Of a stretch of DNA of 64,000 nt, positions 4,927 through 61,723 are shown piece after piece (position 1 is the first letter of the stretch; each line of letters begins with the position of its first letter). Under the pieces are notes generated by a model that had not been told where the DNA came from, ran no database searches, and saw nothing but the letters and a program-made list of their open reading frames with translations. The DNA comes from Ottowia sp. (lineage in GTDB: Bacteria > Pseudomonadota > Gammaproteobacteria > Burkholderiales > Burkholderiaceae_C). The position numbers and the translations under genes are program-made. Location: the NCBI RefSeq assembly GCF_046348305.1, contig NZ_JAXMEM010000012.1:35618-99617 (forward strand), written 5' to 3'.

Positions 4927-6210
4927 TCAGCTTGAGGCTGCGGCGCCGGGCGCTGCTTCCAGCGCGCGGGCGATCGCCTCGGCACGCGCCTGCTGCACGG
5001 CGGCGCCGATCTGCGGCCCGCGCGCGCCGCGCGCCTGGGCCGCGCGCGCAATGGGCTCGGTGGCCACCGCCAGCGCGGCGGCCAGCGCCTGCTGCAGGCG
5101 CGGGCGCTGCGGGTAGGCCGACTCTTCCAGGCCCAGCCGGCCGCGCGCATCGCACTCGCAGGCCAGCAGCACGTCGGCAAAGCGCTCGGGCTTGCGCAGC
5201 GCGTCGCAGCGCTCGAGCAGGCGCAGCAGCGCGGCGGCGTTCAGGCCGGCGCTGCGGTGGATGTTGCCGTGCTCACGCGCCACCACGTCGGCCAGTTCGG
5301 TGCACTCGGTGGGCACGCGCAGGCGCTGGCCGACGGCTTTCAGCAGGGTGCTGCTGCGCTGCTCGTGGCCCAGGTGCCTTGGCAGCACATCGGCCGGCGT
5401 CGTGCCCTTGCCCAGGTCGTGCATTAGGCAGGCCCAGCGCACCGCCAGCGGGGCGTGCAGGCGCGCGGCCGTCTGCAGCACCATCATCACGTGCACGCCG
5501 GTGTCGATCTCGGGGTGATGGCTGGCGGTTTGCGGCACGCCCCACAGGCGCTCCAGCTCCGGCAGCACCACGGCCAGCGCGCCGCATTCGCGCAGCACGT
5601 CGAACATGCGCGCCGGGTGCGCCTCCATCAGGCCGCGCGCCAGCTCCTGCCACACGCGCTCGGGCACCAGGTGGTCGGCCTCGCCCGCCTGTACCATCCG
5701 GCGCATCAGGGCCATGGTTTCGGGCGCGATGGAAAAGTCATGAAAGCGCGCGGCAAAACGCGCCACGCGCAGGATGCGCACCGGGTCTTCGGCGAAGGCG
5801 GCCGTCACGTGGCGCAGCACGCGCGCCTGCAGATCGCGCTGGCCACCGTAGGGGTCGATCAGGTCAGCATTTGAATCGAATAGGCCTTTAGCGCCCGTCC
5901 AATCGGCGCAAGCAGCTATTGAATTGATAGTCAAATCGCGCCGGGCCAGGTCTTCTTGCAGCGTCACGTCGGGGCTGGCGAGCACCGTGAAGCCGCGATA
6001 GCCGCGCCCGCTCTTGCGCTCGGTGCGCGCCAGCGCGTATTCCTCATGCGTCTGTGGATGCAGAAAAACCGGAAAGTCCTTGCCCACGGGCACGAAGCCG
6101 CGCGCCGCCATCTCCTCGGGCGTGGCACCCACCACCACCCAGTCGCGGTCCTGCACCGGCAGGCCCAGCAGCCCGTCGCGCACCGCACCGCCGACCATGT
6201 AGATTTGCAT
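4927..6210 (-). CDS. cca: CCA-adding tRNA nucleotidyltransferase with HD domain
   Basis: [43 protein letters not shown]. Confidence 0.96.
5871..5930. repeat. ~60-bp palindromic repeat family A, copy in frame inside cca
   Basis: TTGAATCGAATAGGCCTTTAGCGCCCGTCCAATCGGCGCAAGCAGCTATTGAATTGATAG; AT-rich; shares GCGCAAGCAGCTAT core with intergenic copies. Confidence 0.85.
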
Positions 6211-14529: not shown

Positions 14530-14585
14530 GCTACTTGATTGATAGCTGGTTGCGCTTGATGAACAAGCGCAATCGCTTGTTTCAA
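14530..14585. repeat. Repeat family A, intergenic copy
   Basis: GATAGCTGGTTGCGCTTG-ATGAA-CAAGCGCAA hairpin. Confidence 0.75.
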
Positions 14586-16995: not shown

Positions 16996-17058
16996 GCTCT
17001 GATATCAATAGCTGCGCGCGCCCATCACAAGGGCACAAGCAGCCATTTCGACGTTCAA
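16996..17058. repeat. Repeat family A, diverged intergenic copy
   Basis: TCAATAGCTGCGCGCGCCC...GGGCAC...TTCAA between converging maeB and yceI-like genes. Confidence 0.6.
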
Positions 17059-20623: not shown

Positions 20624-20682
20624 TACAAGCGGTTTCAGTCGCTCGCGCCCATCCCGTGCGTGCAAGCAGCTATCATTTTTGA
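20624..20682. repeat. Repeat family A, intergenic copy abutting a start codon
   Basis: ...GTGCAAGCAGCTATCATTTTTGA immediately before ATG 20683. Confidence 0.7.
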
Positions 20683-39347: not shown

Positions 39348-40532
39348 ATGGCGGACAATTCGCCCGTGTCTTCCACCGCCGCCTCACACGCCCCATCCGC
39401 CGAACTGGCCGCGCACATCGTCCACGCCATCCAGGCCGCCGGCGGCTGGCTGCCCTTTGACCGCTTCATGCAGCTGGCGCTGTACGCGCCGGGCCTGGGC
39501 TACTACGCCCATGGCTCGCGCAAGTTCGGCCAGCTGGCGCGCGACGGCAGCGACTTCGTGACCGCGCCCGAGCTTTCGCCGCTGTTTGGCCAGACGCTGG
39601 CCGGCGCCGTGGCCGAGGCCTTGCAGCACACCGGCACGGATGAGGTGTGGGAATTTGGCGCGGGCTCCGGCGCGCTGGCCGAGCAGGTGCTGGGCGAGCT
39701 GGCGCGGCGCGGCCAGTCGCTGCGCCGCTACACCATCGTCGATGTGTCGGGCGCTCTGCGCACGCGTCAGCAGCAGCGCCTGGCCGCGCACGGCGCCATC
39801 GTGCAATGGGCCGACTCCCTGCCCGAGACCATGACCGGCGTGGTGCTGGGCAACGAGGTGCTGGACGCCATGCCGGTCAAGCTGCTGGCGCGGGTGGACG
39901 GGACGTGGCACGAGCGGGGCGTGGTCTGCAAGCCAAATCGGCCGCTGACGCCCAATGGACGAGCGCAAGCAGCTATCAATTCAGAAGCATTCGCATGGCA
40001 TGACCAGCCCACCGCGCTGCGCCCGCCGGTGGAGATCGACGGCGAGCACGACTGCGTGACCGAGATCCATCCCCAGGCCGAGGCCTTCGTGCGCACCCTG
40101 GCCGAGCGCCTGCTGCGCGGCGGCCGCGGCGCGGCGTTTTTCATCGACTACGGCTTTCCGGAGGCCGAGTACTACCACCCGCAGCGCCACATGGGCACCC
40201 TGGCCTGCCACCGCGCGCACCGCATGGACGACGAGCCGCTGGCGGACGTGGGCGAGAAGGACATCACCGCCCACGTCAACTTCACCGGCATCGCCCTGGC
40301 CGCGCAGGACGCGGGCCTGTCGGTGCTGGGCTACACCAGCCAGGGGCGCTTTCTGTTCAACGGCGGCCTGGCCGAGCGCATGGCCGCGCTGCCGCTCATC
40401 GAGCGCGCGCCCGCGATGAAGCTGCTGGCCGAGCACGAAATGGGCGAGCTGTTCAAGGTCATCGGCCTGGCCGTGGGCGAAGGCTGGGCCGCGCAAGGGT
40501 TTGCGACGGGCGACCGCACGCACCGGCTGTGA
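39348..40532 (+). CDS. SAM-dependent methyltransferase (NDUFAF7/MidA family)
   Basis: FDRFMQLALYAPGLGYY, DFVTAPE, EFGAGSG, NEVLDAMP, IDYGF, DITAHVNF. Confidence 0.92.
   Translation: MADNSPVSSTAASHAPSAELAAHIVHAIQAAGGWLPFDRFMQLALYAPGLGYYAHGSRKFGQLARDGSDFVTAPELSPLFGQTLAGAVAEALQHTGTDEVWEFGAGSGALAEQVLGELARRGQSLRRYTIVDVSGALRTRQQQRLAAHGAIVQWADSLPETMTGVVLGNEVLDAMPVKLLARVDGTWHERGVVCKPNRPLTPNGRAQAAINSEAFAWHDQPTALRPPVEIDGEHDCVTEIHPQAEAFVRTLAERLLRGGRGAAFFIDYGFPEAEYYHPQRHMGTLACHRAHRMDDEPLADVGEKDITAHVNFTGIALAAQDAGLSVLGYTSQGRFLFNGGLAERMAALPLIERAPAMKLLAEHEMGELFKVIGLAVGEGWAAQGFATGDRTHRL
39928..39988. repeat. Repeat family A, copy in frame inside the methyltransferase
   Basis: GCAAGCCAAATCGGCCGCTGACGCCCAATGGACGAGCGCAAGCAGCTATCAATTCAGAAGC. 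Confidence 0.85.
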
Positions 40533-44544: not shown

Positions 44545-45144
44545 ATGACCACCACCCACCTGCTCTACCTGCACGGCTTTCGCTCCTCGCCCCAGTCCAA
44601 CAAGGCGCGACAGATGGCGGCGCGCGTGCAGGCCGAGCACCCCACCGTGCACTGGTGGTGTCCGCAACTGCCGCCCTCGCCCCGCGCCGCCGCGGCGCTG
44701 ATCGATGAGGGCACTGCCGACTGGCCGGCTGAGTACATGGCCGTCGTCGGCTCTTCGCTGGGCGGCTACTACGCCAGCTGGCTGGCCGAGCGGCGCGGCT
44801 GCCGCGCGGTGCTGCTCAACCCCGCCGTCGATCCGGCGCGCGACCTGGCCGCGCACGTCGGCGAGCAGAGCGCCTGGCACGACCCGGCGGCGAATTTCTT
44901 CTTTCGCGCCGAATACATCGAGGAGCTGCGCGCCCTGCGCGCCGGGCCGCTCGCCGACCCGAGCCGCATCCTGGCCGTCATCGCCAAGGGCGACGAAGTG
45001 CTCGCCTGGCGCGAAATGGTCGTGCGCTACGCCGGTGCGCATATCCGGCTGCTGGAGGGGGGCGATCATGCGCTGTCGGACTTTCCGGCGCTGATCGACG
45101 AGGTGATTGAATTCCTGCATCTCGCCCGGGATCAACAGTCCTGA
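44545..45144 (+). CDS. YqiA/YcfP-family esterase
   Basis: LYLHGFRSSPQS, VGSSLGGYYA, LLNPAV, GGDH. Confidence 0.92.
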   Translation: MTTTHLLYLHGFRSSPQSNKARQMAARVQAEHPTVHWWCPQLPPSPRAAAALIDEGTADWPAEYMAVVGSSLGGYYASWLAERRGCRAVLLNPAVDPARDLAAHVGEQSAWHDPAANFFFRAEYIEELRALRAGPLADPSRILAVIAKGDEVLAWREMVVRYAGAHIRLLEGGDHALSDFPALIDEVIEFLHLARDQQS

Positions 45145-45197
45145 TTTGATAGCTGTTTGCGCTTGCTGAGCCTGCGCAAACACCTGATTTCATTCAT
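45141..45197. repeat. Repeat family A, intergenic copy
   Basis: TTGATAGCTGTTTGCGC...GCGCAAA hairpin overlapping the yqiA-like stop. Confidence 0.75.
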
Positions 45198-45320: not shown

Positions 45321-47381
45321 ATGTACATGCTTTTCGACGAAGCCGGCAAATTTTTGGCCGGCCGCATCCTCTCCGAGGCCGAAGCCTCCGCCCAGGTCGA
45401 GCTCGACTCGGGCAAGCGCGTCAAGGTCAAGGCCGCCAACCAGCTGCTGCGCTTTGACAAACCGGCGCCCGCCGAGCTGCTGGCGCAGGCCGAATCACAG
45501 GCCACCGACATCGACCCGGCGCTGGCCTGGGAATTCGCCCCCGAGGGCGAGTTCGGCTTTGCCGAACTGGCGGCCGACTACTTCGGCGCGGCGCCCGACA
45601 CCGTGCAGCAGGCCGCCGCCCTGATGGCCCTGCAGCAGGCGCCGCACTACTTTCGCCGCGCCGGCAAGGGCCGCTTCAAGAAGGCGCCGGCCGACATCGT
45701 GGCGCAGGCGCTGGCGGCCATCGAGAAGAAAAAGCAGCTCGCCGCGCAGATCGCCGGCTGGGCGGGCGAGCTGGCGGCCGGCCGCTGCCCGGCGCCCATC
45801 GGCGAGCAGCTCTACAAGATCCTGTTCCGGCCGGACAAGAACGCCCCCGAATACAAGGCCGTGGTCGAGGCCGCGCGCGCCACGCAGCTGGCGCCGCTGA
45901 CACTGCTGCAGCGGGCGGGCGCGATCACCTCGGCCTACCAGTTTCACTGGCAGCGCTTTTTGTTCGAGAACTTCCCCAAGGGCACCGACTTTCCGCCGCT
46001 GCCGCCCCTGGCCCTGCCGCAGGATTTGCCGCTGGCGCCGGTGCAGGCCTTCTCCATCGACGACTCGCAGACCACCGAGATCGACGACGCGCTGTCGCTG
46101 CAAGGCCTGGGCACGGGTACCGTGGAGCTGGGCATTCACATCGCGGCGCCGGGCCTGGCGATCGCGCCCGGCGATGCGCTGGACGACGTGGGCCGCAACC
46201 GCCTGTCCACCGTCTACATGCCGGGCTACAAGATCACCATGCTGCCCGACGACGTGGTGCAGGCCTGCACCCTGGCCGAAGGGCAGGATGTGCCGGCGGT
46301 GTCGCTGTACGTCACGCTCGATGAAGCCAGCCTGGCCATCCAGGCCAGCGAGACGCGCATCGAGCGCGTGCCCATCGTCGCCAACCTGCGCCACGACCAG
46401 CTCGATGCGCTCATCACGCCCGAATGGCTGGCGGGCACCCATGACGCAAGCCAAACCGGGGCTTTGCCCGCCCCCATCCAGCGCGAGCAGCTATCGTTTT
46501 TATATCGTCTGGCCCAGCACCTGAAGGCCAAGCGCGAGCAGGTGCGCGGCAAGCCCGAAACCTTCAACCGGCCGGACTACAGCTTCAAGCTGGTCGGCGT
46601 GGCCGATGGCCAGGCGCCCACGGGCGACGAGCAGGTGCAGATCACCCCGCGTCAGCGCGGCGCGCCGCTGGACCTGATGGTGGCCGAGCTGATGATCCTG
46701 GCCAACAGCAGCTGGGGCGAATGGCTCAAGGGCCTGGGCGTGCCTGCCATCTACCGCAGCCAGGCCAGCCTGCTGCCGGGCATCAAGGTGCGCATGGGGG
46801 CCAAGGCGCTGCCGCACGCGGGCATCGGCGTGCCCAGCTATTGCTGGAGCACCTCGCCGCTGCGCCGCTATGTCGATCTGGTCAACCAGTGGCAGATCAT
46901 CGCCGCCGCACGCCACGGCACGGCCGCCGCGCTGGCCGCGCCCTTCAAGCCCAAGGACGCCCAGCTGTTCGCCATCATCAGCGCGTTCGACGCGGCCTAC
47001 ACGGCCTACAACGGCCACCAGGCCGCCATGGAGCGCTTCTGGACGCTGCAATGGCTGTGCCAGCACGGCGCCACCGAGCTGACGGCCAGCCTGCTGCGCG
47101 AGCAGGCCGGTGGCGCCTGGCTGGTGCGCGCCGACGAGCTGCCCCTGGTCTTCACCGTCATGGGCGCGCAAGCCCTGACCCGCGGCGCGCGCGTGCGCGT
47201 CAGGCTGGGCAACACCGACCCGATCGCGCTGGACGTGCACGGCACCGTGCTCGAGGTGCTGGCCGACACGCTGCCCGTCGCCGCCAGCGACACGCCCGAC
47301 GACGAGGACGCCGACGCCGGCCCGCTGGCCATCGCGGTGGACATGAACGAAGCCGAGCCCGCCGGCGATACCCCCGCATGA
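45321..47381 (+). CDS. RNB-domain exoribonuclease (RNase II/R family)
   Basis: SIDDSQTTEIDDALS, TVYMPG, AELMILAN, YCWSTSPLRRYVDL. Confidence 0.92.
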   Translation: MYMLFDEAGKFLAGRILSEAEASAQVELDSGKRVKVKAANQLLRFDKPAPAELLAQAESQATDIDPALAWEFAPEGEFGFAELAADYFGAAPDTVQQAAALMALQQAPHYFRRAGKGRFKKAPADIVAQALAAIEKKKQLAAQIAGWAGELAAGRCPAPIGEQLYKILFRPDKNAPEYKAVVEAARATQLAPLTLLQRAGAITSAYQFHWQRFLFENFPKGTDFPPLPPLALPQDLPLAPVQAFSIDDSQTTEIDDALSLQGLGTGTVELGIHIAAPGLAIAPGDALDDVGRNRLSTVYMPGYKITMLPDDVVQACTLAEGQDVPAVSLYVTLDEASLAIQASETRIERVPIVANLRHDQLDALITPEWLAGTHDASQTGALPAPIQREQLSFLYRLAQHLKAKREQVRGKPETFNRPDYSFKLVGVADGQAPTGDEQVQITPRQRGAPLDLMVAELMILANSSWGEWLKGLGVPAIYRSQASLLPGIKVRMGAKALPHAGIGVPSYCWSTSPLRRYVDLVNQWQIIAAARHGTAAALAAPFKPKDAQLFAIISAFDAAYTAYNGHQAAMERFWTLQWLCQHGATELTASLLREQAGGAWLVRADELPLVFTVMGAQALTRGARVRVRLGNTDPIALDVHGTVLEVLADTLPVAASDTPDDEDADAGPLAIAVDMNEAEPAGDTPA
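46446..46506. repeat. Repeat family A, copy in frame inside the RNB nuclease
   Basis: GCAAGCCAAACCGGGGCTTTGCCCGCCCCCATCCAGCGCGAGCAGCTATCGTTTTTATATC. Confidence 0.78.
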
Positions 47382-52093: not shown

Positions 52094-52280
52094 CAGCCGA
52101 GCGCAAAGGCAACGCAAAGAACGCCAAAACACCGTCAACTGAGCTTGATTGGCCGAAAGGCCTTTTTTTGCAAGCGCAGGCAGCTATCAAATCGGCAGCG
52201 GCGAATTTGGATTCTTCTGCGCCCTTTGCGAATTCTTTGCGTCCTCTGCGTCCGGCCGTTCGGCTTTGCGTCCGGCTGTC
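52094..52280. repeat. Family B element with a family A copy nested inside (52146-52198)
   Basis: TTCTGCGCCCTTTGCGAATTCTTTGCGTCCTCTGCGTCCGGC matches 20551-20592; CAAGCGCAGGCAGCTATCAAAT inside. Confidence 0.78.
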
Positions 52281-61650: not shown

Positions 61651-61723
61651 CCGCAAAATCAAAGAAAAAACGCCCTGGCACGCCCGTGGGGCGCGCGCAG
61701 GGCGCTATGGTTTCAAGAGTGTC

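Follow-up and report, generated by a model that had tools for sequence, protein, structure and literature searches.

An in-frame copy of a dispersed hairpin repeat beside the catalytic motif of the CCA-adding enzyme in Ottowia and related Comamonadaceae

The cca gene of Ottowia raises the question of how part of the catalytic region of a core tRNA-maturation enzyme can also be a copy of a dispersed DNA repeat, and what keeps its DNA repeat-like. A preliminary description of the 64,000-nucleotide stretch analysed here (the window) had placed a repeat at positions 5871-5930 and suggested that it overwrote or mimics part of a conserved motif and lengthened the adjoining loop. Its reading of the minus strand around motif B, within an intact 427-aa ORF, was exact. 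The repeat is real, and we place it at 5874-5931, in agreement with the earlier coordinates.

A repeat copy in the catalytic region of cca

cca (4927-6210, minus strand) encodes a multifunctional class II CCA-adding enzyme and is the sole match in this Ottowia genome (G000; the assembly is 90.6% complete). The protein has a PolyA_pol head domain (57.8 bits), a PolyA_pol_RNAbd domain and a C-terminal HD domain (38.9 bits). Motif A is present in the head domain (GGAVRD at residues 7-12, plus D21-R-D23). The motif B catalytic triplet R90-R91-D92 (5935-5943, minus strand) lies directly upstream of the element and is unchanged. Motif C (D119-PYGGQR-D126-L), which starts with the 'spring' element D119-P-Y-G-G123 (5842-5856, minus strand), and motif D (E141-D142-PV-R145) are both intact. 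R90-R91-D92, D119, P120, G123, D126 and E141-D142-PV-R145 are invariant in both of our Cca alignments. The AF2 model (pLDDT 89.8, pTM 0.87) matches the structures 3h37, 1miv, 4wc2 and 3wfq (probability 1.0, TM ~0.6), and its closest folds are class II CCA/A-adding enzymes. From the intact motifs and the single-copy status of the gene, we presume that the enzyme is fully functional and infer that the loop is translated. Because the catalytic residues are all intact, motif B has been re-coded, not disrupted.

The copy was found by nhmmer with a family model whose seed was another copy and from which cca had been masked out. It occupies 5874-5931 on the minus strand, and its codons run from T94 through D112 and into the first base of S113. 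The match (47.7 bits, E 2.5e-12) covers model positions 1-58 of 59 and ranks 21st of about 500, in the top 5% of repeat copies, and weaker similarity to the family 3' tail continues to about 5869. The cca copy, ATAGCTGCTTGCGCC-GATTGGACG-GGCGCTAAAGGCCTATTCGA, has all of the family boxes (ATAGCTGC, GCGC...GCGC and GGCC.ATTT) and the central hairpin (5891-5909, minus strand), in which GCGCC (5905-5909) is predicted to pair with GGCGC (5891-5895) around a 9-nt loop. The hairpin core has a minimum free energy of -13.6 kcal/mol; the family averages -14.1, and shuffles give -9.9.

The 5' arm of the repeat encodes TINSIA (ACT ATC AAT TCA ATA GCT; 5914-5931, minus strand), the continuation of motif B. 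These first 18 nt overlie T-I-N-x-I-A codon for codon, in keeping with the proposal that the element overwrote or mimics part of the motif; the corresponding codons in repeat-free lineages are ACC ATC AAC GCC ATC/ATG GCC. The TINSIA codons had been called AT-ending, which is correct for five of the six; ATC ends in C. The contrast that had been drawn with an otherwise GC3-rich gene is borne out: GC3 is 0.38 at codons 94-114 and 0.89 over the other 406 cca codons (Fisher p 8e-8).

The loop had also been said to be longer, and it is. Residues A100-L117 (5860-5913, minus strand), flexible by AlphaFold, form a loop 11 residues longer than the canonical loop before DPYGG; RRD and the Gly of DPxGG are 34 aa apart in this Cca and 23 aa apart in each of the eight other Burkholderiales families sampled (8/8). 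The copy takes the place of the native loop as well as extending it. The extra residues are also visible in an alignment to 1vfg. The preliminary description had named, as evidence against itself, the same loop in lineages without the repeat; outside the Comamonadaceae we found the short canonical loop. In the AlphaFold model the insert is a low-confidence surface loop, with a mean pLDDT of 61 for residues 101-110 and values below 50 for residues 106-108.

We give practically no credence to the idea that the repeat match is an artefact of chance or composition, or to the idea of cca as a pseudogene in decay. Such readings have only the shortness of the element in their favor. However, the E value was obtained with an independent model, the same match occurs in dozens of genomes, and the single-copy gene has an intact ORF with all motifs. 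We also rejected the frame slip in G008 as a sign of a pseudogene. The slip falls within an A5 run, and the assembly has 4 contigs and is 89% complete; an assembly error is thus its simplest reading.

The repeat family and the age of the cca copy

The family is a dispersed hairpin repeat of about 59-67 nt with the consensus ACTATCAATTTGATAGCTGCTTGCGCTTG-loop-CAAGCGCCAGAGGCCGATTTGACTTGAAAA, and it is specific to the Comamonadaceae. By iterated nhmmer, the 3.58-Mb Ottowia genome has about 500 copies (140 per Mb), and in the 64-kb window the 16-mer CAATAGCTGCTTGCGC occurs 11 times with up to 3 mismatches, compared to 1.4 expected. About one third of the copies are inside ORFs, and the intergenic copies are concentrated at gene 3' ends. 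Hairpin stability exceeds that of shuffles and is the same inside and outside genes. There was no signal of base-pair covariation in the family alignment (all MI <0.09). An Rfam scan of the window returned tRNA only and nothing matching the repeat, a literature search by repeat sequence strings returned nothing relevant, and the R. ferrireducens genome paper reports CRISPR only and does not mention the family.

The copy in cca is one of many in genes. At least 114 other copies are in frame and have coding signal on either side; between them they use all six frames of the element. This count is approximate because the gene caller was crude. Hosts with full-length equivalog matches include PurL, HrpA, an AddA-like protein, UvrA, UvrD, RecQ, ProA, MnmC and ComEC. 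Two such copies are in the window. One (39931-39987, minus strand; 43.6 bits) is fully inside an ORF in the opposite orientation (39348-40532, plus strand), with good coding signal on both sides. The other (46448-46504, minus strand; 31.4 bits) is in a gene at 45321-47381 (plus strand) and uses another element frame. The copy in ProA is younger and is confined to repeat-rich Ottowia.

We found no mobilising enzyme for the family. The only PF01797 (Y1/RAYT) gene of this genome (G000 C3:327611-328228) is flanked by inverted repeats of a different type, GGGGTCAGATCA, with no family copy closer than about 5 kb. Repeat-poor Ottowia (G001, G009, G016, G019, G020 and G024) and other families have RAYT-like genes, and the repeat-rich genomes G010 and G023 lack them. 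We therefore rejected RAYT as the mobiliser, based on the different flanking repeat and a presence that is uncorrelated with the family. The element ends carry a direct ATTTGA-like repeat, and terminal inverted repeats are not clear. At the hairpin foot, TAG is nearly invariant and is preceded by A in 77% of copies and by G in some. A comparison of ProA sites with and without the element did not resolve a target-site duplication, as the junctions have diverged too far. As neither a mobilising enzyme nor terminal inverted repeats nor a target-site duplication were identified, insertion by transposition is only putative.

The same element is present in cca of many genera, which rules out a recent, genome-specific insertion. 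The Ottowia model matches the cca loop DNA of Acidovorax, Polaromonas, Rhodoferax, Simplicispira, Diaphorobacter, Giesbergeria and Curvibacter with 15-51 bits, and nearly all of these matches begin at model position 1-2, the ACT of TIN. In the cca tree, the repeat-like state occurs in every major subclade of the family. Judged by these matches and the tree, the cca element is ancient and common to the Comamonadaceae, and is not limited to one genome or genus. Some repeat-free Comamonadaceae have an equally long loop with GC-ending codons. Sister taxa in the tree have a loop peptide in common but encode it in different codon styles, and we therefore read the GC-rich long loops as probable ameliorated descendants of the repeat.

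A single ancient insertion in cca is compatible with the tree. One clade of all 85 expanded-loop lineages, a grouping named after the tree had been seen, was not rejected (p-AU 0.55). However, the backbone has weak support, and in the free tree canonical 23-aa loops (Ramlibacter, L083 and L104) nest inside the expanded clade. That nesting could reflect several independent insertions at one hot spot, in Ottowia, in the Acidovorax group and in the Polaromonas/Rhodoferax group, favored by native codons (ACC ATC AAC GCC ATC GCC ... ATC GAC CC) that resemble both ends of the element. Loop lengths that vary by clade (27, 33-35 and up to 49 aa) fit such a history, as do the resemblance of each cca copy to the current variant of its own genome and the element-like sequences of unequal length at the ProA site of two unrelated groups. 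We nonetheless consider independent insertions rather improbable. The register is the same in nearly all repeat-state lineages, and the single expanded-loop clade has the higher likelihood. In addition, the repeat-free, GC-rich long loops match their repeat-state sisters in peptide and length, which indicates long persistence at the site and not fresh arrival.

What keeps the cca copy repeat-like

A copy that is common to the Comamonadaceae and whose DNA is still repeat-like is no ordinary insertion left to decay. Repeat-like cca DNA is found only in genomes in which the family is abundant. In Ottowia, all ten genomes with repeat-like cca are repeat-rich (10/10; 46-500 core hits), and the cca loops of repeat-poor Ottowia (0-8 hits) are relic, GC-rich or short. 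In other genera, 12/12 repeat-state genomes are rich (36-612 hits), and 11/11 genomes with a GC-rich long or a short loop are at the background hit level. There are two exceptions: Ottowia G013 is repeat-rich yet its cca loop is GC-rich, and the likewise repeat-rich Comamonas aquatilis has only a relic in cca.

The cca copy is also closer to the repeat variant of its own genome than to that of another genus. The copy in our Ottowia genome reaches 50.2 bits with the Ottowia model and 33.1 with an Acidovorax model, whereas the copy in Acidovorax G041 reaches 38.6 and 60.4, respectively. Pairwise identities at codon positions 1/2/3 are 0.85/0.87/0.62 in the flanks of cca and 0.72/0.76/0.64 in the element. 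A/T-ending codons are kept in 81% of element comparisons and in 34-37% of those in the flanks (Fisher p 2e-28, in a test that counts related sequences as independent). Among 28 other repeat-state cca genes, ACT and ATA are each kept in 28/28, GCT in 27/28 and AAT in 26/28.

We think it probable that 5874-5931 is an in-frame copy that entered cca once, early in the evolution of the Comamonadaceae, was tolerated, and has since been re-homogenised or held. The AT-rich 5' arm is similar to the native ACC ATC AAC GCC ATC GCC, and this similarity may have aided entry. Tolerance of the element would be explained by its site, a flexible surface loop that joins two head-domain strands. The element would later have been re-homogenised against the genomic repeats, by gene conversion or by replacement with new copies, or alternatively held by whatever acts on all copies. 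Selection on the protein would retain only variants compatible with T-I-N-(A/S)-I-A. Where the family died out, mutation pressure would have re-coded the loop with GC-ending codons, or the loop would have been deleted. The longer loop itself would have no required role in the enzyme.

A different explanation, which we regard as unlikely but well short of negligible, is that the ~60-nt unit acts in cis as a DNA or RNA signal across the genome, overprinted on coding sequence and kept directly by selection or drive. Candidate roles are a protein-binding site, a processing site, or a DNA-uptake or recombination site like the DUS and USS discussed below, and gene conversion would not be needed. The nearly invariant synonymous sites of the 5' box across genera, the retention of repeat-like DNA only where the family is abundant, the lineage-specific 'dialects' that the cca copy follows, the equal hairpin strength inside and outside genes and the lack of a transposase correlated with the family all fit such a signal. 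So does the small length gain at some sites. In Acidovorax cca the element covers T-I-N...F-D-P and lengthens the protein by a net 4 aa only, and the element-like stretch in ProA of Polaromonas/Rhodoferax adds only 4 aa where Ottowia carries +14 aa. On the other hand, the whole ~60 nt can be aligned with the consensus, 'variable' stem included, and exceeds known uptake signals in length; there is no known binding protein or uptake specificity; and the intergenic copies cluster at gene 3' ends, as REPs do. The lack of covariation in the family alignment is better explained if the units are copies of a master sequence than if each site was selected independently.

We consider it very unlikely that the longer loop is adaptive, through contact with tRNA or a partner or through the dynamics of motif C, with the likeness to the repeat incidental or secondary. 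The loop does adjoin motif C, which is the hinge for head-neck movement (PMC8563995), and most Comamonadaceae keep an expanded loop even after its DNA has been re-coded. However, the loop peptide is strongly different between lineages, loops in the Comamonadaceae are 23 to 49 aa long and are short in several lineages, and synonymous sites are conserved as strongly as replacement sites. The low model confidence of the loop and the rank of the segment among the best-scoring repeat copies also argue against a role of the peptide.

On the preferred reading, of one early entry followed by re-homogenisation or retention, cca offers a natural, alignable reporter locus for repeat upkeep, be it by gene conversion, re-insertion or selection of a signal. 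It would also report how much foreign peptide the class II head domain tolerates beside motif C. In-frame AT-rich blocks in Comamonadaceae genes appear to be repeat-derived and to evolve in concert, and thus should be masked in annotation and phylogenetics. If the unit is in fact a signal, it would be live and family-wide, at hundreds of fixed sites that include the catalytic core of Cca and other essential enzymes, and coding sequence and signal would have co-evolved throughout the history of the Comamonadaceae. The family would then be a new kind of genome-wide 'overprinted' signal and not selfish DNA, an outcome that we regard as unlikely.

Comparison with known repeats and signals

Fragments of this family have almost certainly been seen before. 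A statistical listing of unnamed 'potential novel motifs' (PMC5217627) includes GCTTAT(N)5AAGCG of Acidovorax ebreus and ATAGCT(N)22CAAAAG of Polaromonas naphthalenivorans, with 114 and 125 copies, respectively, mostly near gene ends and with 5 and 18 copies in genes. Our Acidovorax repeat consensus contains GCGCTTAT-NNN-ATAAGCGC and ATAGCT, and by this likeness the two motifs are almost certainly fragments of the same repeat family. The full element, its in-frame translation, its conservation across genera and the cca case are absent from that listing.

Other known elements share some features with the Ottowia repeat. The BRE of Bordetella and Comamonadaceae are also betaproteobacterial and are occasionally inside coding sequences, but they are GC-rich (69%), 75-91 bp long and present in few copies, in tandem VNTR arrays (PMC3110155). 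We rejected the BRE as the same element because they are GC-rich, longer and tandem. The DUS of Neisseriaceae and the USS of Pasteurellaceae are, like the Ottowia repeat, family-specific, highly abundant and found in genes in all frames. They also have lineage 'dialects' and, if the parallel holds, would share upkeep by drive and not by protein function. DUS and USS are 10-30 nt long and have a demonstrated uptake function. The Ottowia repeat is longer and hairpin-shaped, and the likeness is one of analogy only.

REPs and REPINs (PMC3733652, PMC3116915) are, like the Ottowia repeat, abundant imperfect palindromes with an xTAG at the hairpin foot. In the Ottowia repeat this tag is [A/G]TAGC and mostly ATAG, compared to GTAG in REPs. 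Both repeats are enriched in the spaces between convergent genes and between co-oriented ones. Di Nocera et al. (2013) described intragenic REPs in DNA repair genes of other phyla (PMC3733652), and the Ottowia repeat is likewise inside the DNA repair genes uvrA and uvrD. Unlike in the REP/RAYT system, the Y1 gene does not track the repeat in its flanks or in its presence. The unit is also unlike a REP in that it is ~60 nt long, with conserved AT-rich arms and about a third of its copies in ORFs.

The closest analogue is the family of Rickettsia palindromic elements (RPEs, summarised in PMC10969869), and we suggest that the Ottowia repeat works like an RPE and do not claim that it is one. Both are short, palindromic, dispersed repeats that are intergenic and also in frame in many housekeeping genes. 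Both would be translated as extra surface peptides that do not destroy the host protein, and some insertions of both are old and common to several species. RPEs were reportedly described by Ogata et al. in 2000 and by Claverie and Ogata in 2003, and to our knowledge Rickettsia is the only textbook case of in-frame palindromic repeats. The Ottowia repeat differs in that it is in free-living, high-GC Comamonadaceae, is ~60 nt long compared to about 100-150 nt for RPE-1, and, in cca, partly overlays native codons of a catalytic motif; the likeness rests on behavior and not on sequence. We know of no description, for RPEs, of repeat-like synonymous sites across genera or of copies that track the variant of their own genome.

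A free-living, high-GC family appears to have RPE-like in-frame repeats on a larger scale, in more than 100 genes of one 3.6-Mb genome. What seems new beyond RPEs is a repeat that has re-coded part of a catalytic motif, has probably persisted there since early in the history of the family, and would still, despite strong GC pressure, be held or re-homogenised as DNA.

An in-frame repeat in cca

The cca gene at window 4927-6210 (minus strand), an intact open reading frame of 427 aa, is the only cca match in the 90.6%-complete source assembly. In domain make-up (PolyA_pol head, RNA-binding and HD), its product is a multifunctional class II CCA-adding enzyme. Codons 94-114 read ACT ATC AAT TCA ATA GCT GCT TGC GCC GAT TGG ACG GGC GCT AAA GGC CTA TTC GAT TCA AAT, and their GC3 is 0.38, compared to 0.89 in the remaining 406 codons (Fisher p 8e-8). 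The preliminary description reported this minus-strand reading correctly but wrongly counted ATC as AT-ending.

This segment belongs to a dispersed repeat family. With up to 3 mismatches allowed, the window contains 11 occurrences of the 16-mer CAATAGCTGCTTGCGC, compared to 1.4 expected, and iterated nhmmer searches found ~500 family copies in the 3.58-Mb genome (140 per Mb). To guard against circularity, we built a family model from another seed, the copy at window 39963, with cca masked throughout. The masked model matched window 5874-5931 over positions 1-58 of 59 (47.7 bits, E 2.5e-12), ranking 21 of ~500. Family members share three conserved boxes (ATAGCTGC; GCGC-(about 11 nt)-GCGC; GGCC.ATTT), AT-rich arms and a hairpin in the centre. 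The hairpin is more stable than shuffled sequences in 90% of copies (-14.1 vs -9.9 kcal/mol), and no covariation was detectable in the family alignment.

The family match and the loop lengths of orthologs uphold the initial interpretation that the element overwrote or mimics part of a conserved motif and made the following loop longer. The element re-codes part of the conserved TIN tail of motif B, downstream of RRD, and extends the loop that leads into motif C (which starts at DPYGG), while leaving the catalytic residues, all invariant in cca alignments, untouched. An AlphaFold2 model of the product (44-sequence alignment; pLDDT 89.8, pTM 0.87) has a predicted fold that matches class II CCA/A-adding enzymes. 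Its only weak internal stretches are the known flexible loop (residues 61-80) and the insert (mean pLDDT 61 at residues 101-110, <50 at 106-108), which comes after strand 99-101 and before the DPYGG turn and helix 123-128. Motif C, described as a spring reorienting the head and neck (PMC8563995), begins 3-4 residues past the insert. On the simplest reading, the insert would be a tolerated, flexible surface loop.

Distribution and age of the expanded loop

Measured from RRD to the DPxGG glycine, the source cca has 34 aa, compared to 23 aa in eight other Burkholderiales families (e.g., TINAIAQDEHGNIIDPFGG), and the extra residues are also visible in alignment with A. aeolicus 1vfg. Other genomes share the expansion, and loop length ranges from 23 to 49 aa across Comamonadaceae. 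Among the Ottowia compared, which include O. flava (G007) and Ottowia sp. VDI28 (G001), the site holds repeat-like DNA in ten other species (ACTATCAAT.C.ATAGCTGC..GCGC.GA.TGG...GCGC...GGCC.A.TT), a long loop in GC-ending codons in four, and a short or intermediate loop in five. One of these five (G019, locus L015; 25-aa loop) nevertheless retains ATAGCTGCTTGCG after TINAIA, which points to a remnant left by deletion of the element and not to a site that it never invaded. In Ottowia G008 (L021:1440-1530), cca has the same element and a 1-nt frame slip in an A5 run (GGCAAAAAGACC) that interrupts the gene at residue ~114. For an assembly of 4 contigs and 89% completeness, a homopolymer error is the simplest reading.

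Among 80 named Comamonadaceae cca loci searched, the Ottowia-derived, cca-masked model matched loop DNA at 15-51 bits, in Acidovorax, Polaromonas, Rhodoferax, Simplicispira, Diaphorobacter, Giesbergeria and Curvibacter. Nearly all matches start at model position 1-2, at the ACT of T-I-N. In the Acidovorax group, the 3' TTTGACCC of the element continues straight into the F-D-P of the DPYGG motif, and the net gain there is therefore just 4 aa. Two MAG loci labelled 'Asaia bogorensis' (L065) and 'Synechococcus sp. UW140' (L092) have a typical Comamonadaceae cca nested among Polaromonas-like sequences; these contigs are probably mis-binned or mislabelled.

In a cca tree built after removing the loop columns, the outgroups are all short-loop, Comamonadaceae form a clade at 100% support, and each major subclade contains the repeat-like state. 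Canonical 23-aa loops of Ramlibacter and two MAGs fall inside the expanded clade, on weak branches only. A tree joining all 85 expanded-loop lineages, a group chosen from the tree itself, was not rejected (p-AU 0.55) and was 6.8 log-likelihood units higher, which is compatible with one early gain of the element. Sister taxa have loop peptide and length in common, yet their codon styles are not alike: Curvibacter PD_MW3 (...RPDGTFD..., repeat-like DNA) vs Curvibacter PAE-UM and Hylemonella (...RPDGSFD..., GC-rich), Paracidovorax anthurii vs P. citrulli, and Polaromonas E14 vs LacPavin. This pattern looks like amelioration of an old insertion.

The cca copy and the genomic repeats

The cca copy and the repeats elsewhere in the genome still evolve together. 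Thirteen Ottowia genomes contain 43-500 matches to the core motif ATAGCTGCNNGCGC, compared to 0-8 in other Ottowia and other families, and all ten Ottowia genomes with repeat-like cca are in the repeat-rich set. In other genera, 12/12 genomes with repeat-like cca are rich (36-612 matches vs 3-17 in controls), and 11/11 with GC-long or short loops are at background. There are two exceptions: Ottowia G013 (L013) has 122 core matches, yet its cca loop is GC-rich and long with no repeat signal, and Comamonas aquatilis (G057, L094) has 228 matches, yet only a weak relic in cca.

Variants also track. The family consensus of Acidovorax G041 is GCTACTAATTTGATAGCTACTAGCGCTTATTGAATAAGCGCTAGAGGCCATTTTGACTC, and its cca copy has the same form, scoring 60.4 bits by the Acidovorax model and 38.6 by the Ottowia model; the source cca copy scores 33.1 and 50.2, respectively. 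Across pairs of the 29 repeat-state cca genes, identity at codon positions 1/2/3 is 0.72/0.76/0.64 within the element, compared to 0.85/0.87/0.62 for the flanks. The A/T-ending codons of the source gene are kept with the same amino acid in 81% of comparisons in the element, including ACT (28/28), ATA (28/28), GCT (27/28) and AAT (26/28), vs 34-37% in 180 flanking codons (Fisher p 2e-28, for sequences that are phylogenetically non-independent). Abundance, variant tracking and synonymous sites all indicate a lasting tie between the copy in cca and the repeats of its genome, and they rule out protein-level selection as the cause of the repeat-like DNA. Either the cca copy is repeatedly re-homogenised from other copies, by gene conversion or re-insertion, or all copies are under a common DNA- or RNA-level constraint.

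Other copies, mobilisation and known repeats

Nine family copies lie in the 64-kb window. Three are in frame, including those at 39931-39987 and 46448-46504, and six are not fully within called genes (14530-14581, 16996-17051, 20635-20682, 45140-45194, 52148-52198 and 61663-61720). By a crude codon-usage caller (2862 genes), on which intragenic counts depend, 162/501 copies in the genome are fully within ORFs; in 114 of these, good coding signal covers 40 or more codons on each flank, and all six element frames are used. The hosts checked by NCBIfam are full-length housekeeping proteins, namely PurL (2 copies), HrpA, an AddA-like helicase (3 copies), UvrA, UvrD, RecQ, AceE-type E1, MnmC, ProA and ComEC. 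Orientations and frames differ among the two in-frame copies in purL (C6:69085-73347) and the three in the addA-like gene (C10:116396-119716).

The ProA copy (+14 aa, 44 bits) is confined among Ottowia to repeat-rich genomes and is absent from repeat-poor Ottowia, outgroups, Acidovorax, Diaphorobacter, Comamonas, Curvibacter, Giesbergeria and Simplicispira. Rhodoferax G046 (L203) and Polaromonas G065 (L206) have an element-like +4-aa stretch at this site (27 and 13 bits), reflecting either independent colonisation of one site or 'overprinting'. Colonisation of the genes thus took place at different times, with some site preference. At one junction each, native codons resemble an AT-rich element end: ACC ATC AAC and ACTATCAAT in cca, and ATT YTG AAR and TTTTCAAG in ProA. 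These resemblances hint at homology-assisted integration or target preference.

No clear terminal inverted repeats were found for the family, the junctions of filled and empty ProA sites were too diverged to reveal a target-site duplication, and no transposase correlated with the family across the compared genomes. The single Y1/RAYT-type gene of the source genome (C3:327000-328700, L031) lies between inverted copies of AAATGGGGTCAGATCAACATTT, which may be its own REP/TIR partner. We rejected Y1/RAYT as the mobiliser because the inverted repeat on either side of it is not the one studied here and the gene's occurrence does not follow that of the family. The complete Ottowia genome G021 has ~20 IS200/IS605-type Y1 transposase matches (~150-aa ORFs, 152 bits); the other Ottowia compared show no such expansion.

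Taken together, the sequence comparisons argue that the cca segment is an ancient and presumably translated copy from a Comamonadaceae repeat family that is essentially undescribed. In the literature searched, the family is traceable only as a statistical listing of potential novel motifs, GCTTAT(N)5AAGCG in A. ebreus and ATAGCT(N)22CAAAAG in P. naphthalenivorans (PMC5217627). The BRE of Bordetella and Comamonadaceae is a different element, GC-rich and tandem. Convergent gene pairs have an excess of intergenic copies of our family between them and divergent pairs a deficit, the same bias as in REP elements, and intragenic REPs and RPEs occur in other phyla, notably in uvrA, uvrB and uvrD (PMC3733652).
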